A DNA stretch of 64,000 nucleotides from Escherichia coli (GTDB taxonomy: Bacteria > Pseudomonadota > Gammaproteobacteria > Enterobacterales > Enterobacteriaceae), in the NCBI RefSeq assembly GCF_030013205.1, contig NZ_CP122648.1; one strand, written 5' to 3'. The notes under the pieces were generated by a model. It saw nothing but the letters and a program-made list of their open reading frames with translations, ran no database searches and had not been told where the DNA came from. A program made the position numbers and the translations under genes. Shown in pieces: positions 6,341-33,269 of this stretch (the first letter of the stretch is position 1; the number at the start of each line of letters is the position of its first letter).

Positions 6341-6914
6341 CAGGACGCCACAATTTAAGCGTTCTGCCTAAAAATCATTTCTACCGAACTCAACCAAATT
6401 CTCCCCACAACACCAGCATTTTGCGGGTATATCCCAATTCGGGAAAATTTGTTCCTGAGCTATAGCGCTGACTGACGTGAAATGTCGTGCGACCCCGTGA
6501 TGCTGTTGAATGTCAAATGACGTCATCAGGAGCGTAACGCATCCATAAAGCACAACACCGGTCTGAACGCCGACTGATGAGATTTTCTGAATGAGAACAA
6601 AGAGAAATGTATCAGTCCGCTTGCTCATGCAAAGACTAACAATCCATAAAAATAGTAAGCGCGCCGGGCAATTTCCCATGGATTATTTTCTGAACATTTT
6701 TCTTTGGCAAAGATGATGAATTTTGATGATAAGGAATATTACTTCTGGTTCTCAGTAAAATCCTTTCGTAATACTATGTAATCAAGAAGTTTATGGCTGG
6801 TAAAAATAACGTCTTGCATTCACCAATAATATGTAAATAAAACCATCTATAGATGGTAAAAATAGGTTGTGGCAATTATCATTGCATCATTCCCTTTTCG
6901 AATGAGTTTCTATT

Positions 6915-20104: not shown

Positions 20105-21445
20105 ATGTTATTTACTATCCAACTTATCATAATACTGATATGTCTGTTTTATGGTGCCAGAAAGGGTGGTATCGCGCTGGGTTTATTAGGCGGTATCGGT
20201 CTGGTCATTCTGGTCTTCGTCTTCCACCTTCAGCCAGGTAAACCACCGGTTGATGTCATGCTGGTTATCATTGCGGTAGTGGCGGCATCGGCGACCTTGC
20301 AAGCTTCGGGCGGTCTTGATGTCATGCTGCAAATTGCCGAGAAGCTGCTGCGCCGCAACCCGAAATATGTCTCAATTGTCGCGCCGTTTGTGACCTGTAC
20401 GCTGACCATTCTTTGCGGTACGGGTCATGTGGTTTACACCATTCTGCCGATCATCTACGACGTCGCCATTAAGAACAACATCCGTCCGGAACGCCCGATG
20501 GCGGCAAGTTCTATCGGTGCACAGATGGGGATTATCGCCAGTCCGGTGTCGGTTGCAGTCGTGTCTCTGGTTGCGATGCTGGGTAATGTCACCTTTGATG
20601 GTCGCCATCTTGAGTTCCTCGACCTGCTGGCAATCACCATTCCATCGACGTTAATCGGTATCCTGGCGATCGGTATCTTCAGCTGGTTCCGCGGTAAAGA
20701 TCTGGATAAAGACGAAGAGTTCCAGAAATTCATCTCCGTACCGGAAAACCGTGAGTATGTTTACGGTGATACTGCGACGCTGCTGGATAAAAAACTGCCG
20801 AAAAGCAACTGGCTGGCAATGTGGATCTTCCTCGGGGCAATCGCTGTAGTCGCCCTTCTTGGTGCTGATTCGGACCTGCGTCCATCCTTCGGTGGCAAAC
20901 CGCTGTCGATGGTACTGGTTATTCAGATGTTTATGCTGCTGACCGGGGCGCTGATTATTATCCTGACCAAAACCAATCCCGCGTCTATCTCAAAAAACGA
21001 AGTCTTCCGTTCCGGTATGATCGCCATCGTGGCGGTGTACGGTATCGCATGGATGGCAGAAACCATGTTCGGTGCGCATATGTCTGAAATTCAGGGCGTA
21101 CTGGGCGAAATGGTGAAAGAGTATCCGTGGGCCTATGCCATTGTTCTGCTGCTGGTTTCCAAGTTTGTAAACTCTCAGGCTGCGGCGCTGGCGGCGATTG
21201 TTCCGGTCGCGCTGGCGATCGGCGTTGATCCGGCATACATCGTGGCTTCAGCACCGGCTTGCTACGGTTATTACATCCTGCCGACTTATCCGAGCGATCT
21301 GGCAGCGATTCAGTTTGACCGTTCCGGCACCACCCACATCGGTCGCTTCGTCATCAACCACAGCTTTATTCTGCCGGGGTTGATTGGTGTGAGCGTATCG
21401 TGCGTCTTCGGCTGGATCTTCGCCGCGATGTACGGGTTCTTATAA
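20105..21445 (+). CDS. dcuB: Anaerobic C4-dicarboxylate (fumarate/succinate) antiporter
   Basis: 446 aa polytopic membrane protein. Confidence 0.95.
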
Positions 21446-21522: not shown

Positions 21523-23169
21523 ATGTCAAACAAACCCTTTATCTACCAGGCACCTTTCCCGATGGGGAAAGACAATACCGAATACTATCTACTCACTTCC
21601 GATTACGTTAGCGTTGCCGACTTCGACGGCGAAACCATTCTGAAAGTGGAACCAGAAGCCCTGACCCTGCTGGCGCAGCAAGCCTTTCACGACGCTTCTT
21701 TCATGCTCCGCCCGGCCCACCAGAAACAGGTCGCGGCTATTCTTCACGATCCAGAAGCCAGCGAAAACGACAAGTACGTGGCGCTGCAATTCTTAAGAAA
21801 CTCCGAAATCGCCGCCAAAGGCGTGCTGCCGACCTGCCAGGACACCGGCACTGCGATCATCGTCGGTAAAAAAGGCCAGCGCGTGTGGACCGGTGGCGGT
21901 GATGAAGAAGCGCTGTCGAAAGGCGTCTATAACACCTATATCGAAGATAACCTGCGCTATTCACAGAACGCGCCGCTGGACATGTATAAAGAGGTCAACA
22001 CCGGCACGAACCTGCCTGCGCAAATCGACCTGTACGCGGTAGATGGCGATGAGTACAAATTCCTTTGCGTTGCGAAAGGCGGCGGCTCTGCCAACAAAAC
22101 GTATCTCTACCAGGAAACCAAAGCCCTGCTGACTCCCGGCAAACTGAAAAACTTCCTCGTCGAGAAAATGCGTACCCTCGGTACTGCAGCCTGCCCGCCG
22201 TACCATATCGCGTTTGTGATTGGCGGTACGTCTGCGGAAACCAACCTGAAAACCGTCAAGTTAGCAAGCGCTCACTATTACGATGAACTGCCGACGGAAG
22301 GGAACGAACATGGTCAGGCGTTCCGCGATGTCCAGCTGGAACAGGAACTGCTGGAAGAGGCCCAGAAACTCGGTCTTGGCGCGCAGTTTGGTGGTAAATA
22401 CTTCGCGCACGACATTCGCGTTATCCGTCTGCCGCGTCACGGTGCATCCTGCCCGGTAGGCATGGGCGTCTCCTGCTCCGCTGACCGTAACATTAAAGCG
22501 AAAATCAACCGCGAAGGTATCTGGATCGAAAAACTGGAACACAATCCAGGCCAGTACATTCCACAAGAACTGCGTCAGGCCGGTGAAGGCGAAGCGGTGA
22601 AAGTCGACCTTAACCGCCCGATGAAAGAGATCCTCGCCCAGCTTTCGCAATATCCGGTTTCCACTCGTTTGTCGCTCACCGGCACCATTATTGTGGGTCG
22701 AGATATTGCACACGCCAAGCTGAAAGAGCTGATTGACTCCGGTAAAGAACTTCCGCAGTACATCAAAGATCACCCGATCTACTACGCGGGTCCGGCGAAA
22801 ACGCCTGCCGGTTATCCATCAGGTTCACTTGGCCCAACCACCGCAGGTCGTATGGACTCCTACGTGGATCTGCTGCAATCCCACGGCGGCAGCATGATCA
22901 TGCTGGCGAAAGGTAACCGCAGTCAGCAGGTTACCGACGCGTGTCATAAACACGGCGGCTTCTACCTCGGTAGCATCGGCGGTCCGGCGGCGGTACTGGC
23001 GCAGCAGAGCATCAAGCATCTGGAATGCGTCGCTTATCCGGAGCTGGGTATGGAAGCTATCTGGAAAATCGAAGTAGAAGATTTCCCGGCGTTTATCCTG
23101 GTCGATGACAAAGGCAACGACTTCTTCCAGCAAATCGTCAACAAACAGTGCGCGAACTGCACTAAGTAA
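21523..23169 (+). CDS. fumB: Class I fumarate hydratase, anaerobic
   Basis: 548 aa; Fe-S fumarase; C-terminal CANC motif. Confidence 0.95.
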
Positions 23170-23291
23170 CCTCTTCGGCCCAGCGCCTGGCAGCATGCTG
23201 CCAGGTGATCCCCCTGGGCCACCTCTTTTGCGATTGTAATTTCACGCTTGCTGGTGAATAGTCAGTATTTTCCCTGACTTGCGAACTCACC

Positions 23292-23942
23292 ATGACCCGC
23301 ACACTCAAGCCGTTAATTCTTAACACCGGCGCACTGGCGCTAACGTTAATCCTGATTTATACCGGCATTTCGGCCCGTGACAAACTCACCTGGCTGATGG
23401 AAGTGACACCGGTGATTATTGTCGTGCCGCTACTGCTTGCCACCGCTAAACGTTATCCGTTAACGCCGCTGCTCTATACGCTCATTTTCTTTCACGCCAT
23501 CATCCTGATGGTCGGCGGACAATACACCTACGCGAAAGTCCCCGTTGGTTTTGAGGTGCAGGAATGGCTGGGGTTGAGCCGTAATCCGTATGACAAACTG
23601 GGGCATTTTTTCCAGGGGCTGGTGCCTGCACTGGTGGCACGAGAGATCCTTGTGCGCGGGATGTACGTTCGCGGACATAAGATGGTGGTGTTTCTGGTCT
23701 GCTGCGTGGCGCTGGCGATAAGCGCGATGTATGAATTAATCGAGTGGTGGGCGGCGCTGGCAATGGGCCAGGGAGCGGATGATTTTCTCGGCACCCAGGG
23801 CGACCAGTGGGACACGCAATCCGATATGTTCTGCGCGCTGCTTGGCGCATTAACGACGGTGATATTCCTCGCTCGCTTTCATTGCCGCCAGCTACGGCGC
23901 TTTGGCTTAATCACCAGAGCGCCGGAAGCGATTACCCCTTAA
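23292..23942 (+). CDS. yjdF: Inner membrane protein YjdF, with a C-terminal tail that may differ from K-12
   Basis: 216-codon ORF; I recall K-12 YjdF as 209 aa; stop codon overlaps melA stop. Confidence 0.8.
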   Translation: MTRTLKPLILNTGALALTLILIYTGISARDKLTWLMEVTPVIIVVPLLLATAKRYPLTPLLYTLIFFHAIILMVGGQYTYAKVPVGFEVQEWLGLSRNPYDKLGHFFQGLVPALVAREILVRGMYVRGHKMVVFLVCCVALAISAMYELIEWWAALAMGQGADDFLGTQGDQWDTQSDMFCALLGALTTVIFLARFHCRQLRRFGLITRAPEAITP

Positions 23943-25294
23943 CGGTGCAACCAGCCAGGCAGCCAGTCGCCGTGGGCAGCAATCAAGTCGTCAACAAGAG
24001 CATATATTTCGTCAATGCCCAGCACGGCGGCAGTATGCGGGTCCATCATCGCGGCGTGGTAAACACGGTCGCGATTTTCCGTAAGAATGGCTTCGGTCAG
24101 CAGCGTCTGTACGTTGATGTTGGTTTGCATCAGGGCGGCCAGATGCGAAGGTAGCGTACCGACTTTGGTCGGCTGAATGCCATTAGCATCAACCAGACAG
24201 GCCACTTCCACACAACATCCTTGTGGCAGGTTATCAATCAATCCATCGTTACGGACGTTGCCGTAAATCACACTCGGCTCGCCAGTCCAGATAGCGTTCA
24301 TGATTGTGCTGGCATATTCCCGTGACGGTTTAATATCAATCCGGGAGGCGTTTTTATACTCCTCCAGCTCTTTATGCCAGTTCGCCAGCTGCTCGACGCA
24401 GCGTTTCGGGTACTCATCCAGCGGTACTTTATAACGCTCAATCAAATCCTCACGACCTGGCTTAATAAACCACGGTGTGTACTCAGCAAAATGTTCTGAC
24501 GATTCCGTGACGAAGTAGCCCAGCTTTTTGAACATTTCGTAGCGCACAATATTCTGGCAGCGAGTATTGCCATGAATATTCGGCTTCGGTGCCTGCCCTG
24601 CTTCATAAGCCGCCAGCAGTTCCGGGTAGAGATTCACGTAACTGCCGTCGGCGGTTTTGCGCTCCAGTTCCAGGTAAAACGCCATATGGTTGATACCTGC
24701 ACAACGGTAACGCAGCGTAGACGGGTCGATATTGAGGTCACGCGCCAGCTCTTCCGCCGTTCCCTGCACCGAATGGCACAGCCCTACCTGTTTGATATGC
24801 GGATAGCGGGCATACATCGCCCAGGTATTCATCGCCATTGGGTTAACATAGTTGAGCATGGTGGCATCGGGGCAGACTTCCGTCATGTCCTCGCAAATTT
24901 GCCACAGATGCGGAATGGTACGTAGCGCGCGCATAATACCGCCCGGCCCCAACGTATCGGCAATGGTTTGTTCCAGACCATGCCGCTTACAGACCTCGAA
25001 ATCAGTCACCGTGCAAGGTTCATAACCGCCAATCTGAAATGCCACCACGACAAAATCAGCATCCTGTAAGGCTTCTTTCTGTTGGGTGTGGCAGGTGATT
25101 TTGCCGCTGGCCCCTGCTGAATCCATCAGCTTACGCACCACAATGTGCGACTCTTCCAGGCGGGTGGGATCAATGTCCATCAGGGCAATATGCGCCGTTT
25201 TCAGCGCCTCGCGATGGAACACATCACCAAGAATATTTTTAACGAAAATCGTCGAACCAGCGCCGATAAATGTAATTTTGGGTGCAGACATCAT
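23939..25294 (-). CDS. melA: Alpha-galactosidase (melibiase)
   Basis: 451 aa MMSAPKITFIGAGS... ending GWLHR; NAD-binding GxGS motif. Confidence 0.95.
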   Translation of the reverse strand: MMSAPKITFIGAGSTIFVKNILGDVFHREALKTAHIALMDIDPTRLEESHIVVRKLMDSAGASGKITCHTQQKEALQDADFVVVAFQIGGYEPCTVTDFEVCKRHGLEQTIADTLGPGGIMRALRTIPHLWQICEDMTEVCPDATMLNYVNPMAMNTWAMYARYPHIKQVGLCHSVQGTAEELARDLNIDPSTLRYRCAGINHMAFYLELERKTADGSYVNLYPELLAAYEAGQAPKPNIHGNTRCQNIVRYEMFKKLGYFVTESSEHFAEYTPWFIKPGREDLIERYKVPLDEYPKRCVEQLANWHKELEEYKNASRIDIKPSREYASTIMNAIWTGEPSVIYGNVRNDGLIDNLPQGCCVEVACLVDANGIQPTKVGTLPSHLAALMQTNINVQTLLTEAILTENRDRVYHAAMMDPHTAAVLGIDEIYALVDDLIAAHGDWLPGWLHR

Positions 25295-25372
25295 GCAGAT
25301 CTCCTGGCTTGCTTGAATAACTTCATCATGGCAGGCGAATCTGCAGAAAACCTCCGGCTTCCAGGTTGAGCA

Positions 25373-25426
25373 TTCCCATAAACTCAGATCCTACGTGAAG
25401 CAGCAGTAAATCTGAGTTTATGGGAA
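25373..25426. promoter_or_regulatory. Inverted pair of MelR-type binding sites in the melR-melA divergent promoter
   Basis: ttcccataaactcagatc (25373-25390) and its inverted copy atctgagtttatgggaa (25410-25426). Confidence 0.6.
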
Positions 25427-25576
25427 TAAATTACCTGAAAAGCAGAGTTTTCGGCCTCAGAATGCTCGGACGGTCCCCTCGCCTCTCTGGGAAGAGAGTG
25501 AAAACCGTGCTCCCACTCGCAGTCATCCTCCCTCACTCCTGCCATAATTCTGATATTCCAGGAAAGAGAGCCATCC

Positions 25577-26485
25577 ATGAATAAAGATACGTTTATGTGC
25601 AGTAGCGACGAAAAACAGACCCGCAGCCCGCTATCGCTGTATTCGGAATACCAGCGGATGGAGATTGAGTTTCGCGCACCGCATATCATGCCCACCAGCC
25701 ACTGGCATGGTCAGGTCGAAGTGAATGTGCCTTTCGATGGCGATGTGGAATACCTGATCAACAATGAAAAAGTGAATATCAATCAGGGTCATATCACGCT
25801 GTTCTGGGCCTGTACACCGCACCAACTAACAGATACCGGAACCTGTCAGAGCATGGCGATTTTTAATCTGCCGATGCATCTGTTTCTCTCCTGGCCGCTG
25901 GATAAAGACCTGATTAACCACGTCACTCACGGTATGGTGATCAAATCACTGGCGACACAGCAACTTAGCCCGTTTGAAGTGCGCCGCTGGCAGCAGGAAT
26001 TGAACAGTCCGAACGAGCAAATTCGCCAGCTCGCCATTGATGAAATTGGCCTGATGCTCAAGCGATTTAGCCTCTCTGGCTGGGAACCGATTCTGGTCAA
26101 TAAAACCTCGCGCACACACAAAAACAGCGTCTCGCGCCATGCGCAATTTTATGTCAGCCAGATGCTGGGCTTTATTGCCGAAAACTATGATCAGGCGCTG
26201 ACCATCAACGATGTGGCTGAGCACGTCAAACTTAACGCCAACTATGCAATGGGGATATTCCAGCGGGTCATGCAATTGACGATGAAACAGTACATAACCG
26301 CGATGCGCATCAACCACGTTCGCGCGTTACTGAGCGATACCGATAAAAGTATTCTCGATATTGCCCTGACGGCAGGCTTTCGTTCAAGTAGTCGTTTTTA
26401 CAGCACGTTCGGCAAATATGTCGGCATGTCGCCGCAACAATACCGCAAACTTAGCCAACAGCGCCGCCAGACGTTTCCCGGCTAA
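25577..26485 (+). CDS. melR: Melibiose operon AraC-family activator
   Basis: 302 aa; C-terminal AraC-type HTH. Confidence 0.95.
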   Translation: MNKDTFMCSSDEKQTRSPLSLYSEYQRMEIEFRAPHIMPTSHWHGQVEVNVPFDGDVEYLINNEKVNINQGHITLFWACTPHQLTDTGTCQSMAIFNLPMHLFLSWPLDKDLINHVTHGMVIKSLATQQLSPFEVRRWQQELNSPNEQIRQLAIDEIGLMLKRFSLSGWEPILVNKTSRTHKNSVSRHAQFYVSQMLGFIAENYDQALTINDVAEHVKLNANYAMGIFQRVMQLTMKQYITAMRINHVRALLSDTDKSILDIALTAGFRSSSRFYSTFGKYVGMSPQQYRKLSQQRRQTFPG

Positions 26486-26680: not shown

Positions 26681-28951
26681 ATGATGAAAGTATTAATTGT
26701 TGAAAGCGAGTTTCTCCATCAAGACACCTGGGTCGGTAACGCCGTTGAGCGTCTGGCTGATGCTTTAAGCCAGCAAAATGTTACCGTGATTAAATCCACC
26801 TCCTTTGATGATGGTTTTGCCATTCTCTCTTCAAACGAAGCCATTGACTGCCTGATGTTCAGCTATCAAATGGAACATCCGGACGAACATCAAAACGTCA
26901 GACAATTGATCGGTAAGCTTCATGAGCGCCAACAAAACGTGCCGGTCTTCCTGTTGGGCGATCGGGAAAAAGCCCTCGCCGCAATGGACCGGGATCTGCT
27001 GGAGCTTGTCGATGAATTCGCCTGGATTCTGGAAGATACCGCCGACTTTATCGCCGGACGCGCCGTTGCCGCGATGACCCGCTACCGCCAGCAACTGTTA
27101 CCGCCACTGTTCAGCGCGCTGATGAAATATAGCGACATCCATGAATATTCCTGGGCAGCGCCAGGCCACCAGGGTGGCGTTGGTTTTACCAAAACACCCG
27201 CCGGACGTTTCTACCATGACTACTATGGTGAAAACCTGTTCCGCACCGACATGGGCATCGAACGAACTTCCCTCGGTTCTTTGCTTGACCATACTGGCGC
27301 ATTTGGCGAAAGCGAAAAATATGCCGCACGCGTATTTGGTGCCGATCGCTCCTGGTCGGTAGTCGTCGGTACTTCCGGCTCTAACCGCACCATCATGCAG
27401 GCTTGCATGACCGATAACGATGTCGTGGTCGTTGACCGTAACTGCCATAAATCCATCGAACAAGGCTTGATGCTGACAGGCGCGAAACCGGTCTACATGG
27501 TGCCAAGCCGCAACCGCTACGGCATTATCGGGCCAATCTATCCGCAGGAAATGCAACCTGAAACCTTGCAGAAGAAAATCAGTGAAAGCCCGCTGACCAA
27601 AGACAAAGCCGGGCAAAAACCGTCTTACTGCGTGGTGACCAACTGTACCTATGACGGCGTGTGTTATAACGCGAAAGAAGCGCAGGATCTGCTGAAAAAA
27701 ACCTCCGATCGTCTGCACTTTGACGAAGCCTGGTACGGCTATGCACGTTTCAACCCGATCTATGCCGATCACTATGCCATGCGCGGCGAACCTGGCGATC
27801 ACAACGGTCCTACCGTTTTCGCCACCCACTCCACCCACAAACTGCTGAATGCACTGTCACAGGCCTCTTATATTCATGTACGTGAAGGTCGTGGGGCGAT
27901 TAACTTCTCCCGCTTCAACCAGGCCTACATGATGCATGCCACCACCTCCCCGCTGTATGCCATCTGCGCATCCAACGACGTGGCAGTGTCGATGATGGAC
28001 GGCAACAGCGGCCTGTCACTGACGCAGGAAGTGATCGACGAAGCGGTTGATTTCCGTCAGGCGATGGCGCGGCTGTATAAAGAGTTCACCGCTGACGGTA
28101 GCTGGTTCTTCAAACCGTGGAACAAAGAAGTCGTCACCGACCCACAAACCGGCAAAACCTATGACTTTGCTGACGCACCAACTAAACTGCTGACCACCGT
28201 TCAGGACTGCTGGGTCATGCATCCGGGCGAAAGCTGGCACGGCTTCAAAGATATTCCGGATAACTGGAGTATGCTCGACCCGATTAAAGTCAGCATCCTT
28301 GCTCCGGGAATGGGTGAAGATGGTGAACTGGAAGAAACCGGTGTTCCGGCGGCGCTGGTCACAGCCTGGCTTGGTCGCCACGGCATTGTGCCTACCCGTA
28401 CCACTGACTTCCAGATTATGTTCCTGTTCTCTATGGGCGTGACCCGTGGGAAATGGGGGACTCTGGTTAACACCCTTTGCTCCTTCAAACGCCACTATGA
28501 CGCCAACACCCCGCTGGCGCAGGTGATGCCGGAACTTGTTGAACAATATCCTGACACTTACGCGAACATGGGGATTCACGATCTGGGTGACACCATGTTT
28601 GCCTGGCTGAAAGAAAACAACCCTGGCGCACGGTTGAACGAAGCCTATTCCGGCCTGCCGGTGGCGGAAATCACCCCACGTGAAGCGTACAACGCGATTG
28701 TCGACAACAATGTCGAACTGGTATCCATTGAAAATCTGCCAGGACGCATCGCGGCAAACTCAGTTATCCCGTATCCGCCAGGAATCCCGATGCTGCTGTC
28801 TGGTGAAAACTTCGGCGATAAAAACAGTCCGCAAGTAAGTTATTTACGCTCGCTGCAATCCTGGGACCATCATTTCCCTGGGTTTGAACACGAAACAGAA
28901 GGGACAGAAATTATTGACGGTATTTACCACGTTATGTGTGTGAAAGCGTAA
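26681..28951 (+). CDS. adiA: Biodegradative arginine decarboxylase
   Basis: About 755 aa (start at 26681 or 26684); fold-type I PLP decarboxylase; paralogue of cadA. Confidence 0.95.
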   Translation: MMKVLIVESEFLHQDTWVGNAVERLADALSQQNVTVIKSTSFDDGFAILSSNEAIDCLMFSYQMEHPDEHQNVRQLIGKLHERQQNVPVFLLGDREKALAAMDRDLLELVDEFAWILEDTADFIAGRAVAAMTRYRQQLLPPLFSALMKYSDIHEYSWAAPGHQGGVGFTKTPAGRFYHDYYGENLFRTDMGIERTSLGSLLDHTGAFGESEKYAARVFGADRSWSVVVGTSGSNRTIMQACMTDNDVVVVDRNCHKSIEQGLMLTGAKPVYMVPSRNRYGIIGPIYPQEMQPETLQKKISESPLTKDKAGQKPSYCVVTNCTYDGVCYNAKEAQDLLKKTSDRLHFDEAWYGYARFNPIYADHYAMRGEPGDHNGPTVFATHSTHKLLNALSQASYIHVREGRGAINFSRFNQAYMMHATTSPLYAICASNDVAVSMMDGNSGLSLTQEVIDEAVDFRQAMARLYKEFTADGSWFFKPWNKEVVTDPQTGKTYDFADAPTKLLTTVQDCWVMHPGESWHGFKDIPDNWSMLDPIKVSILAPGMGEDGELEETGVPAALVTAWLGRHGIVPTRTTDFQIMFLFSMGVTRGKWGTLVNTLCSFKRHYDANTPLAQVMPELVEQYPDTYANMGIHDLGDTMFAWLKENNPGARLNEAYSGLPVAEITPREAYNAIVDNNVELVSIENLPGRIAANSVIPYPPGIPMLLSGENFGDKNSPQVSYLRSLQSWDHHFPGFEHETEGTEIIDGIYHVMCVKA

Positions 28952-30184: not shown

Positions 30185-31522
30185 ATGTCTTCGGATGCTG
30201 ATGCTCACAAAGTGGGCTTAATCCCCGTCACCCTGATGGTGTCGGGGAATATTATGGGGTCAGGTGTTTTTCTGTTACCTGCAAACCTGGCCTCCACTGG
30301 CGGGATTGCCATTTATGGATGGTTGGTGACGATTATCGGTGCGCTGGGGCTCTCGATGGTATACGCCAAAATGTCGTTCCTCGACCCAAGTCCTGGTGGT
30401 TCTTACGCTTACGCCCGCCGCTGCTTTGGCCCGTTTCTCGGTTATCAAACCAACGTCCTCTATTGGCTGGCCTGCTGGATCGGCAATATCGCCATGGTGG
30501 TCATTGGCGTAGGTTATTTAAGTTACTTCTTCCCGATTCTGAAAGATCCATTGGTATTAACCATCACCTGCGTCGTGGTGCTGTGGATCTTCGTCCTGCT
30601 GAATATTGTCGGTCCGAAAATGATCACCCGCGTGCAGGCCGTTGCCACCGTGCTGGCGCTGATCCCCATCGTCGGGATTGCCGTATTTGGCTGGTTCTGG
30701 TTCCGTGGTGAAACCTATATGGCGGCATGGAACGTCAGCGGCCTGGGCACCTTCGGCGCGATTCAAAGTACCCTTAACGTTACGCTGTGGTCGTTCATCG
30801 GTGTGGAAAGTGCCTCCGTTGCCGCAGGTGTGGTGAAAAACCCGAAACGCAACGTCCCTATAGCCACCATTGGTGGGGTATTGATTGCCGCCGTTTGCTA
30901 TGTGCTCTCCACCACCGCGATTATGGGGATGATCCCTAATGCCGCACTGCGCGTTTCTGCCTCGCCATTCGGTGATGCCGCACGGATGGCGTTGGGTGAC
31001 ACCGCCGGGGCCATTGTTTCCTTCTGCGCAGCTGCGGGTTGCTTAGGTTCACTGGGCGGCTGGACATTGCTGGCGGGTCAAACGGCGAAAGCCGCTGCCG
31101 ATGACGGACTGTTCCCACCAATTTTTGCCCGTGTTAATAAAGCGGGTACACCAGTGGCGGGGCTGATTATCGTCGGTATTTTGATGACCATCTTCCAGCT
31201 CAGCAGCATTTCACCAAACGCGACCAAAGAGTTCGGTCTGGTTTCTTCCGTCTCGGTCATCTTTACACTGGTGCCATATCTTTACACCTGTGCGGCGTTA
31301 CTGCTGCTCGGCCACGGTCACTTTGGTAAAGCACGCCCGGCATATCTGGCAGTTACTACCATTGCCTTCCTCTACTGCATCTGGGCCGTGGTGGGGTCCG
31401 GGGCGAAAGAGGTTATGTGGTCATTTGTCACCCTGATGGTCATCACCGCCATGTATGCGCTGAATTACAACCGGCTGCATAAAAACCCGTATCCCTTAGA
31501 TGCACCAATAAGCAAAGATTAA
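30185..31522 (+). CDS. adiC: Arginine/agmatine antiporter
   Basis: 445 aa APC family; paralogue of cadB. Confidence 0.95.
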
Positions 31523-31545
31523 TTCCCCTTAATCCAGCAAACATA

Positions 31546-31587
31546 AAAGCCAACCTTAAGAACTTAAGGTTGGCTTAATTTTGCTTT
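31546..31587 (+). terminator. Terminator after adiC
   Basis: aaagccaaccttaag / cttaaggttggcttt stem then aattttgcttt. Confidence 0.65.
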
Positions 31588-31625
31588 GCGAGCATATGCG
31601 CACTTTGTTCGATGGAAACACCGTG

Positions 31626-33269
31626 ATGTTGAAGCGCCTACTAAAAAGACCCTCTTTGAATTTACTCGCCTGGCTATTGTTGGCCGCTTTTTATATCTCT
31701 ATCTGCCTGAATATTGCCTTTTTTAAACAGGTGTTACAGGCGCTGCCGCTGGACTCGCTGCATAACGTACTGGTTTTCTTGTCGATGCCGGTCGTCGCTT
31801 TCAGCGTGATTAATATTGTCCTGACACTAAGCTCTTTCTTATGGCTTAATCGACCGCTGGCCTGCCTGTTTATTCTGGTCGGCGCGGCTGCACAATATTT
31901 CATAATGACTTACGGCATCGTCATCGACCGCTCGATGATTGCCAATATTATTGATACCACTCCGGCAGAAAGTTATGCGTTGATGACGCCACAAATGTTA
32001 TTAACGCTGGGATTCAGCGGCGTGCTTGCTGCGCTGATTGCCTGCTGGATTAAAATCAAACCTGCCGCCTCGCGCCTGCGCAGTGTTCTTTTCCGTGGAG
32101 CCAATATTCTGGTTTCTGTACTGCTGATTTTGCTGGTCGCCGCACTGTTTTATAAAGACTACGCCTCATTGTTCCGCAACAACAAAGAGCTGGTGAAGTC
32201 CTTAAGCCCCTCTAATAGCATTGTTGCCAGCTGGTCATGGTACTCCCATCAGCGACTGGCAAATCTGCCGCTGGTGCGAATTGGAGAAGACGCGCACCGC
32301 AACCCATTAATGCAGAACGAGACACGTAAAAATTTGACCATCCTGATTGTCGGCGAAACCTCGCGGGCGGAGAACTTCTCCCTCAACGGCTACCCGCGTG
32401 AAACTAACCCGCGGTTGGCGAAAGATAACGTGGTCTATTTCCCTAATACCGCATCTTGCGGCACGGCAACGGCAGTTTCAGTACCGTGCATGTTCTCGGA
32501 TATGCCGCGTGAGCACTACAAAGAAGAGCTGGCACAGCACCAGGAAGGCGTGCTGGATATCATTCAGCGAGCGGGCATCAACGTGCTGTGGAATGACAAC
32601 GATGGCGGCTGTAAAGGTGCCTGCGACCGCGTGCCTCACCAGAACGTCACCGCGCTGAATCTGCCTGGTCAGTGCATCAACGGCGAATGCTATGACGAAG
32701 TGCTGTTTCACGGGCTGGAAGAGTACATCAATAACCTGCAGGGTGATGGCGTGATTGTCTTACACACCATCGGCAGCCACGGTCCGACCTATTACAACCG
32801 CTATCCGCCGCAGTTCAGGAAATTTACCCCTACCTGCGACACTAACGAGATCCAGACCTGTACCAAAGAGCAACTGGTGAACACTTACGACAACACGTTG
32901 GTTTACGTCGACTATATTGTTGATAAAGCGATTAATCTGCTGAAAGAACATCAGGATAAATTCACCACCAGCCTGGTTTATCTTTCTGACCACGGTGAGT
33001 CGTTAGGTGAAAATGGCATCTATCTGCACGGTCTGCCTTATGCCATCGCCCCGGATAGCCAAAAACAGGTACCAATGCTGCTGTGGCTGTCGGAGGATTA
33101 TCAAAAACGGTATCAGGTTGACCAGAACTGCCTGCAAAAACAGGCGCAAACGCAACACTATTCACAAGATAATTTATTCTCCACGCTATTGGGATTAACT
33201 GGCGTTGAGACGAAGTATTACCAGGCTGCGGATGATATTCTGCAAACTTGCAGGAGAGTGAGTGAATGA
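31626..33269 (+). CDS. eptA: Lipid A phosphoethanolamine transferase
   Basis: 547 aa from [12 protein letters not shown]; N-terminal transmembrane region plus sulfatase-like domain. Confidence 0.95.

Follow-up and report, generated by a model that had tools for sequence, protein, structure and literature searches.

Evidence for a melB-deletion allele of the mel locus in Escherichia coli and other Escherichia

The window analyzed here, a stretch of 64,000 nucleotides of Escherichia coli contig NZ_CP122648.1, showed the gene order dcuB-fumB-yjdF-melA-melR-adiA, without melB, and the ORF list and the raw sequence were in agreement on this point. The features of the locus are the following:

23292..23942, plus strand: yjdF, encoding a DUF2238 inner-membrane protein in a long form of 216 aa (...ITRAPEAITP*), with its TAA stop at 23940-23942 (ORF list).
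23895..23924, no strand assigned: inverted repeat (hairpin) across the junction, with its left arm in native yjdF and its right arm in the linker; the 11-nt arms are 91% complementary.
23916..23938, no strand assigned: 23-bp linker, encoding the extra YjdF tail RAPEAITP (BLAST breakpoints and sequence comparison).
23939..23942, no strand assigned: 4-nt overlap of the yjdF and melA ORFs, TTAA, with interlocked stop codons (ORF list, raw sequence and RefSeq annotation).
23939..25294, minus strand: melA, intact, encoding an alpha-galactosidase of 451 aa, its stop being the reverse complement of 23939-23941.
25295..25576, no strand assigned: divergent melR-melA regulatory spacer, equal in length to that of K-12 and identical to it at 274/282 positions.
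25577..26485, plus strand: melR, intact, encoding the AraC-family activator of the melibiose operon (302 aa), with 1 aa differing from K-12 (99.7% identical).

MelA of the window aligned with that of K-12 over 451/451 aa with 3 substitutions (99.3% identity), and residues 1 to 208 of YjdF were 96% identical to those of K-12. In K-12 the melR-melA spacer contains the MelR/CRP-controlled promoters. Of the K-12-type melibiose regulon, the window retains MelR, the MelR/CRP-type promoter region and an intact melA, and lacks melB, the Na+/H+/Li+:melibiose symporter gene 3' of melA. No gene for a Na+/H+-coupled melibiose permease was present at the locus or elsewhere in the window: blastn and tblastn searches of the 64 kb with K-12 melB as the query detected neither melB nor a GPH-family paralog, only short REP-like matches. 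The same yjdF/melA overlap and an identical yjdF gene are annotated by RefSeq in the identical genome K_EC180. The first-pass annotation had proposed that melB was missing between melA, ending at 23939, and a convergent yjdF, ending at 23942, so that the strain kept its alpha-galactosidase and lacked the dedicated transporter; the ORF list, the raw sequence and the alignment to K-12 confirmed the absence, both coordinates were exact, and melA and melR were intact. As the yjdF-melA junction is a structural difference and not a statistical pattern, chance is not an issue.

The alignment to the K-12 melAB-yjdF region that the same annotation had suggested was run and defined the endpoints, 1,668 bp in K-12 against 23 bp in the window. 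According to the BLAST breakpoints, positions 4343267-4344934 of NC_000913.3 are replaced by AGAGCGCCGGAAGCGATTACCCC, at 23916-23938. The segment lost with respect to K-12 comprises the melA-melB spacer, melB, the REP-bearing melB-yjdF spacer, and the final codon of yjdF with its stop. On the yjdF side, 23101-23915 was 96.8% identical to K-12 MG1655, and from the melA stop onward, 23939-25400 was 98.6% identical to it. K-12 YjdF has 209 aa and ends in ...RRFGLITG*, whereas the 216-aa YjdF of the window ends in ...RRFGLITRAPEAITP*; the 7 extra codons result from the position of the deletion junction at the yjdF 3' end. The suspicion that yjdF was longer than its K-12 counterpart and that this would fit a 3' deletion junction was therefore borne out, and the possibility that K-12 YjdF had the same C-terminal tail failed, K-12 YjdF ending in LITG* with no long tail.

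The origin of the 23-bp linker was less sharply defined. It is probably, from its sequence, what is left of the melA-melB spacer at its melA-proximal end. Its breakpoint was ambiguous by about 6 nt, and its local alignment with the K-12 spacer (GCGCCGGAA...CCCC) was equalled or bettered by 42 of 3000 shuffled sequences, a similarity that is only moderately significant, so that the exact right-hand breakpoint is uncertain. A further small deletion must also be postulated. The RNA fold of the junction hairpin on the plus strand reached -24.9 kcal/mol (z = -3.4) and was weaker in E. whittamii and E. albertii. We found no intrinsic terminator with a T-tract between the convergent yjdF and melA genes, only this hairpin, which might, speculatively, act as a 3'-end structure for both transcripts.

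Frequencies were counted over 5,426 complete E. coli genomes. The contiguous yjdF-melA segment was present in 1,267 of them, the 151-nt junction in 1,264 and melB DNA in 4,136. The junction and melB sets were nearly complementary (1,267 + 4,136 = 5,403 of 5,426), with some 23 genomes showing neither. E. coli is thus polymorphic at the locus, about 76% of the complete genomes being melB+ and about 23% carrying the deletion. Known junction carriers include Nissle 1917 (junction 100% identical), JJ1886/ST131 and EC488, and the TTAA-overlap geometry was the same in JJ1886, Nissle, EC488, E1V33, SCPM-O-B-8794 and E. whittamii. For its part, the window matched 14 porcine ETEC/O139:H1 genomes at 100% identity over 24 kb, the next best match being 98%, and O139:H1 ST1 has been typed as phylogroup D (PMC11052496). 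The window was about equally far from Nissle (B2) and K-12 (A), at roughly 98 to 99% in most 500-nt windows. This lineage should not be classed as B2; the Clermont markers chuA, yjaA, TspE4.C2 and arpA lie outside the window. Sliding identity to Nissle, JJ1886 and EC488 was a mosaic, mostly 96 to 99% with dips to about 92 to 94%. The data did not support a recent transfer of the allele from B2 to the ST1 lineage, there being no near-identical tract around the junction.

The junction was also found outside E. coli. E. whittamii, Escherichia sp. E1V33 and 'E. coli' SCPM-O-B-8794, which are 5 to 8% divergent at the locus, carried an identical junction and a 216-aa YjdF. In E. albertii and 12 'E. 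coli' genomes the YjdF tail was followed by the last 33 nt of melA, joined to the region upstream of adiA; survival of the junction as this remnant argues that the deletion is ancient. That the melB-less locus is a deletion and not an ancestral absence is indicated by three comparisons of sequence and gene order: the melA-melB order is conserved in Citrobacter and Kluyvera, the K-12 YjdF end LITG* is colinear with LIAG*/LIG* in Citrobacter amalonaticus and S. arizonae, and the linker resembles the K-12 spacer. Two other resemblances were discarded. In C. amalonaticus AUH, which has no mel genes, YjdF ends in ...LTRPDA*, but the DNA of this tail is not convincingly alignable with that of the RAPE tail. 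A 13-nt likeness between the 3' ends of E. coli yjdF and the Citrobacter SemiSWEET gene was put down to coincidence because the end of Citrobacter yjdF is the better match for that of K-12 yjdF.

Between carriers, the dS of melA ranged from 0.22 to 0.43, similar to the values for fumB and adiA, which points to a deletion that is old rather than recently spread. Among melB-less lineages, dN/dS was 0.007 to 0.026 for melA and 0.015 to 0.039 for melR, and both genes are under strong purifying selection in these lineages. We did not find a divergence peak beside the junction between melB+ and deletion alleles within E. coli: K-12 and the window differed at 2/46 and 3/100 positions, and these differences were no more frequent than in comparisons within each class. 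A signature of long-term balanced alleles in the form of a flank divergence peak was therefore rejected, as no signal existed at the junction.

Taken together, the window carries, with a probability that we put at about 0.88, a melB-deletion allele of the Escherichia mel locus. The allele is ancient and is not private to this strain, a context that goes beyond the first reading of the sequence. That reading had implied a recent, strain-specific loss in this isolate, and against K-12 the locus does look like a clean 1.6-kb deletion. However, the identical junction in about 1,264 complete E. coli genomes, its presence in other Escherichia species with flanks 5 to 13% divergent, and melA dS values of up to 0.43 between carriers make such an event extremely improbable. 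Even less credit can be given to a region collapsed by an assembly or sequencing artefact, since more than 1,200 independent complete assemblies share the structure, neither reading frame is disrupted, and RefSeq annotates the gene. Relocation of melB to another part of the genome or to a plasmid, which the first-pass annotation had named as a possible refutation, is very improbable as well. Nothing was found in its favor, and there were only two plasmid melB matches among 20,395 records; the 64-kb window contains neither melB nor a GPH-family paralog, the near-complementary counts over the 5,426 genomes leave at most a handful with both junction and melB, and melB was missing from whole B2 genomes in the scoring by Touchon et al.

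Another alternative concerns the polarity within the genus: following an early deletion, the melB-less state would be ancestral for Escherichia, and melB+ E. coli (A, B1, C, E and others) would have regained the gene through homologous recombination with an unsampled Escherichia relative in which it had survived, followed by a sweep through most of the species. Every non-coli Escherichia representative recovered had the junction or the remnant, although E. fergusonii, E. marmotae and E. ruysiae were not recognizably among the sampled genomes. The melB gene is unusually uniform, at least 99% identical to K-12 in 4,127 of the 4,136 genomes, a band that holds only 2,926 of 5,399 for melA and 1,637 of 5,413 for yjdF, and Escherichia sp. 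MOD1-EC7003 has a melB 99.5% identical to that of K-12 between flanks of 96.0 to 98.0%. Yet the diversity gap among sampled rows was modest (melB, 99.0 to 100%; melA without the yjdF overlap, roughly 98.4 to 100%), no donor lineage was found, and the flanks of melB+ alleles are E. coli-like up to both breakpoints. In addition, melB and melA of E. coli diverge in proportion from their Citrobacter and Kluyvera counterparts, which is what vertical inheritance of a native gene predicts. We consider this re-acquisition unlikely. Import of E. coli melB from Citrobacter or Kluyvera themselves was rejected, the melB/melA divergence ratio between E. coli and Citrobacter (about 1.45) being close to the 1.36 to 1.42 found among Citrobacter and Kluyvera.

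The melB-deletion allele probably arose as follows. The ancestral Escherichia chromosome would have had the order adiA-melR-melA-melB-yjdF-fumB, and a single illegitimate deletion would have taken out everything from the last codon and stop of yjdF through the yjdF-melB spacer and melB into the melA-melB spacer, leaving some 23 bp of the latter. yjdF would then run for 8 codons through this vestige and stop in the TTAA shared with the melA stop. The event would predate, or have crossed, the separation of E. coli, E. whittamii, other cryptic Escherichia lineages and E. albertii. In the last of these a later second deletion would have removed melA-melR, leaving the 33 nt of melA. Within E. coli, the whole of phylogroup B2 carries the deletion, as does the porcine O139:H1/ST1 lineage to which the window belongs. 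If the origin was single and ancient, long-lived polymorphism or recombination between lineages is needed to account for melB+ E. coli. On balance, we give even odds to a fuller account in which the junction is one event older than the E. coli/E. whittamii/E. albertii split, persisted beside the melB+ allele as a trans-species presence/absence polymorphism or was followed by re-import of melB into most E. coli, and left an orphan melR-melA pair kept by strong purifying selection, which would imply a MelB-independent role, with LacY or a different carrier serving for uptake, and possibly a trade-off tied to MelB.

The strong purifying selection on melA and melR without melB indicates that the alpha-galactosidase is still used, and alpha-galactosides would then need a different way into the cell. 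Melibiose is a substrate of LacY in K-12, and LacY is established as the second carrier of this sugar in E. coli, so that loss of MelB need not abolish melibiose use. Uptake in melB-less strains presumably takes place through a permease other than MelB, for example LacY or, as a further possibility, a plasmid Raf permease. Standard tables give 75% of E. coli as melibiose positive (PMC11546641), a value which, next to the 76% of melB+ genomes, suggests that many melB-less strains are negative in routine tests. Our literature search on the melibiose phenotype of B2, Nissle or ST131 strains found nothing specific. Expression of melA and its importance for fitness have been described for some ExPEC/ESBL strains, which may or may not carry melB.

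The practical value of the deletion allele is small: it probably accounts for part of the classical score of about 75% melibiose-positive E. coli, and it marks B2, O139:H1/ST1 and related groups as lineages. Long conservation of an alpha-galactosidase and its regulator without their cognate permease shows that the textbook melAB operon is not the sole stable configuration, and in about a quarter of E. coli melibiose or other alpha-galactosides would reach MelA by another route. Were the single old event true, the alpha-galactosidase would have a physiological role independent of MelB, possibly with a selective trade-off tied to MelB. The identical scar across Escherichia species is a modest evolutionary curiosity, and the allele opens no long-standing question.

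In comparison with known systems, melR-melAB-yjdF of K-12 (b4118-b4121) has the same neighbors and orientation as the window, but it contains a 102-nt melA-melB spacer, the 1,422-nt melB and a 138-nt melB-yjdF spacer with REP elements, where the window has the 23-bp linker. That a major E. coli lineage lacks melB has been known since 2009, when Touchon et al. (PLoS Genet, Table 5; PMC2617782) listed the gene as specifically absent in group B2. As in the window, melB is gone there and melA and melR are kept, and the B2 genomes that we examined (Nissle 1917 and JJ1886/ST131) show the junction, the 216-aa YjdF and the TTAA overlap of the window. That study, covering 20 genomes, went no further than listing the gene as absent and gave this as a trait specific to B2, whereas the allele described here also occurs in the O139:H1/ST1 porcine lineage typed as D and in other Escherichia species. 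E. albertii and the 12 'E. coli' genomes have a long YjdF tail (RAPEALNL/RAPEVFNL) at the junction of the window, but a second deletion has taken melA and melR, both of which the window keeps. This complete loss of the mel operon may be compared with the '70mel' deletion described for O80:H2 STEC (PMC11945584), whose fragment could equal the remnant; the paper gives no sequence for it. Finally, melA-only loci in the Citrobacter freundii complex (C. youngae and Citrobacter sp. Cu233, wls619 and MGH106) have the same yjdF-melA-melR-adiA order without melB as the window, but through an independent junction, with a YjdF of 210 aa (...SAN*) and a 58-nt spacer bearing a REP-like hairpin before the melA stop, while related Citrobacter and Kluyvera species that keep melB also carry a SemiSWEET gene after it that is absent from Escherichia.

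The genes around the junction were taken from an ORF list and from the raw sequence.

Features of the locus (ORF list and raw sequence)
20105-21445, plus strand, dcuB
21523-23169, plus strand, fumB
23292-23942, plus strand, yjdF (216 aa), stop codon TAA at 23940-23942
23939-25294, minus strand, melA (451 aa), stop codon the reverse complement of 23939-23941
25577-26485, plus strand, melR
26681-28951, plus strand, adiA

Given the positions of the two stop codons, the convergent yjdF and melA ORFs share 4 nt, TTAA, exactly where the first-pass annotation had placed the overlap. Compared with the order in K-12 MG1655 (adiA-melR-melA-melB-yjdF-fumB-dcuB), melB is absent between melA and yjdF. A BLAST search with positions 23101-25400 against the K-12 locus yielded two blocks, 23101-23915 matching the yjdF side (96.8%) and 23939-25400 matching K-12 from the melA stop codon onward (98.6%). 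Between them, a 23-bp linker, AGAGCGCCGGAAGCGATTACCCC (23916-23938), stands in place of 1,668 bp of K-12 (NC_000913.3 4343267-4344934), so that the 102-nt melA-melB spacer, melB, the REP-bearing melB-yjdF spacer, the yjdF stop codon and Gly209 are missing. Thus, while K-12 YjdF has 209 residues, ends in RRFGLITG and lacks a long tail, that of the window has 216 and ends in RRFGLITRAPEAITP. The first-pass annotation, which had claimed the loss of melB and a lengthened yjdF that would fit a deletion junction at its 3' end, was therefore correct in observation and interpretation. Its implication of something remarkable in this particular strain did not hold, since the allele occurs in >1,200 complete E. 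coli genomes and in other Escherichia. When the 64-kb window was searched for melB elsewhere (blastn and tblastn with K-12 melB), only short REP-like matches were obtained.

A GC-rich hairpin spans the junction within the yjdF coding tail (23895-23924; -24.9 kcal/mol, z = -3.4), native yjdF contributing one arm and the linker the second. A T-tract was looked for at this hairpin and none was found; E. whittamii and E. albertii have weaker equivalents. Speculatively, the structure might act at the transcript 3' ends of both convergent genes.

Three lines of evidence point to the melB-less state as the derived one. The melA-melB order beside yjdF is kept in several Citrobacter species, Kluyvera and another Enterobacteriaceae genome. 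The end of K-12 YjdF (LITG, TTGATAACCGGATAA) is colinear with those of C. amalonaticus S646 (LIAG, TTGATTGCCGGATAA) and S. arizonae (LIG), and thus the short form is ancestral and the RAPE tail new. Lastly, the linker is similar to the portion of the K-12 melA-melB spacer closest to melA (GCGCCGGAA..AT..CCCC), CAGAG preceding both. This similarity is only moderately significant (42 of 3000 shuffles scored as well), and a vestige of the spacer requires an additional loss of ∼25 nt beside the melA stop codon; for these reasons the right-hand breakpoint is placed in the spacer only as probable. The left one is ambiguous within ∼6 nt (ACC[A/G]GA). A recent import of E. coli melB from Citrobacter or Kluyvera was also considered, and was rejected because the ratio of melB to melA divergence from those genera (24.5 to 26.7% and 16 to 18.5% of DNA positions, respectively) is as among the genera themselves.

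Of 5,426 complete E. coli genomes examined for the allele, 1,267 have yjdF and melA in one contiguous segment (a 151-nt junction-spanning probe was fully covered in 1,264) and 4,136 have K-12 melB DNA, which makes 5,403 together; melA is entirely lacking from another 27. At most a handful could carry both the junction and a melB copy, and the near-complementary counts thus argue against a relocated melB. Carriers include Nissle 1917, with a 100% identical junction, JJ1886/ST131 and EC488; in Nissle 1917, yjdF (locus L062, 19441-20083) is annotated as a frameshifted pseudogene. Standard tables give 75% of E. coli as melibiose positive (quoted in PMC11546641), a suggestive but purely numerical match to the 76% of melB-positive genomes here. 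Separately, E. coli WP5-S18-ESBL-07 contains a 165-nt fragment similar to the melB 3' end (94.5% identity; NZ_AP022159.1 4606279-4606438), annotated as "hypothetical protein" and adjoining crfC, away from the mel locus.

Over positions 30000-54000, the window has 100% identity to 14 porcine genomes (K_EC180, a set of ETEC strains, and O139:H1 strains P15-25 and W13-16), with 98% for the best genome outside this group. O139:H1 edema-disease strains of ST1 have been typed as phylogroup D (PMC11052496), and the assignment rests on that typing, the Clermont markers lying outside the window. Across the locus, Nissle 1917 (B2) and K-12 (A) lie at about the same distance from the window. Taken together, these data show that the melB-less allele extends beyond B2, a group to which the window should not be assigned. 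Positions 23500-24000 share only 94.2% identity with Nissle 1917; in general, no other gene of the locus is as variable as yjdF, whose identity to K-12 falls to ∼94% even within melB-positive E. coli. Positions 31500-32500 (eptA-basRS/proP), 86 to 92% identical to Nissle 1917 and ∼98 to 99% to EC488, appear to be a locally diverged stretch that recombined between lineages.

The window YjdF was then used to scan one genome from each GTDB species, followed by tblastn mapping of neighbors and inspection of tails. A 216-aa YjdF ending in RAPEA(I/T)TP was found in Escherichia sp. E1V33, "E. coli" SCPM-O-B-8794 (a separate species representative) and E. whittamii, where melA abuts yjdF in the same overlap, tblastn mapping detected no melB, and the genes are 89.6 to 97.3% identical to K-12 DNA. 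In E. albertii, the 216-aa YjdF (RAPEALNL) is directly followed by adiA. There and in 14EC047, labeled E. coli, the linker persists together with 33 nt from the 3' end of melA (L009, 6001-6900, E. albertii NBRC 107761; L004, 6092-6990, 14EC047), with 29 of 34 aligned positions as in the window, after which the sequence jumps to the adiA upstream region. Hence the melB junction came first and the melA-melR deletion later. Twelve complete genomes labeled E. coli (14EC047, 14EC017, 14EC007, 2013C-4991, HCP5S3_I4, 25-07338/07233/06685, LB858871, ML35, D1 and 19KM2326N) share this arrangement, without melA, melR and melB, and with an E. albertii-like yjdF (∼87% identical to K-12) and the remaining 33 nt of melA joined to the adiA upstream region. 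This arrangement may correspond to the "70mel" fragment, described in O80:H2 STEC as of "unknown origin" (PMC11945584), and would then be an introgressed E. albertii-type allele.

Between junction carriers, melA dS values were 0.13 (window versus JJ1886), 0.27 (E1V33) and 0.39 to 0.43 (E. whittamii and SCPM-O-B-8794), comparable to those of fumB (0.10 to 0.33) and adiA (0.37 to 0.47), and the junction-adjacent alignment has diverged as much as the rest. Thus, the junction has not spread recently; it is either as old as the carrier lineages or the result of a long-ago transfer between them. Within E. coli no divergence peak between melB-positive and melB-less alleles was observed beside the junction, which is compatible with within-species recombination homogenizing the flanks. 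That melB was re-acquired by, or swept through, melB-positive E. coli seems unlikely, even though melB varies somewhat less than the flanking genes (identity to K-12 of at least 99% in 4,127 of 4,136 genomes, versus 2,926 of 5,399 for melA and 1,637 of 5,413 for yjdF). In its favor is also Escherichia sp. MOD1-EC7003, with a K-12-type 209-aa YjdF, whose melB (L008, 6772-8190) is 99.5% identical to that of K-12, versus 98.0% for dcuB, 96.6% for fumB, 96.0% for yjdF and 96.7% for melA; this suggests recent exchange of melB between that lineage and E. coli by recombination. The alternative is a polymorphism of long standing, accompanied by lineage sorting and recombination.

The retained genes are well conserved. 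MelA differs from K-12 at three residues and MelR at one, and the divergent melR-melA promoter spacer has the same length and 274 of 282 identical positions. Among melB-less lineages, dN/dS was 0.007 to 0.026 for melA and 0.015 to 0.039 for melR, low values matched by those of fumB and adiA; the orphan regulator-enzyme pair has been kept by selection since the deletion. Alpha-galactosides would still enter the cytoplasm through another carrier. K-12 LacY carries melibiose, which induces lac; LacY would be a candidate, with Raf plasmids a further possibility in porcine strains. Constraint on yjdF is weaker but clear (dN/dS, 0.06 to 0.19), and the variable ends of its new tail (AITP, ATTP, ALNL, VFNL) indicate that the extension is probably neutral.

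As in the window, four species representatives of the Citrobacter freundii complex have lost melB and kept melA and melR. Their junction is unlike that of Escherichia (L011, L012 and L013, ∼6633-6691; L015, 4631-4689), with a 210-aa YjdF and then 58 nt of spacer that contain a REP-like hairpin. The mel genes are wholly missing from C. werkmanii and C. amalonaticus AUH_CA_2023_1. Since the Citrobacter losses are independent, Enterobacteriaceae have repeatedly lost melB while retaining melA. In every melB-positive Citrobacter, Kluyvera and other Enterobacteriaceae locus, an 84-aa SemiSWEET gene (NCBIfam NF037968 SemiSWEET_2, 105 bits, cutoff 80) lies immediately downstream of melB (L018, 6657-6911, minus strand; also L017, L019, L020, L021, L052 and L056); it is absent from every Escherichia locus and from the melB-less Citrobacter loci compared. 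The unit at these melB-positive loci is melA-melB-semiSWEET, whereas K-12 has REP elements at the SemiSWEET position.

The absence of melB from phylogroup B2 was reported by Touchon et al. in 2009 (Table 5, PMC2617782), so the basic fact is already published, and the window locus is a member of this known melB-less class, first reported for B2. To it are added here the junction anatomy, its presence in the O139:H1/ST1 lineage, the evidence of continued selection on melA and melR, and the occurrence of the allele in E. whittamii, in two further species representatives and, in remnant form, in E. albertii; the age of this trans-species allele is the sole part that might merit a short note.
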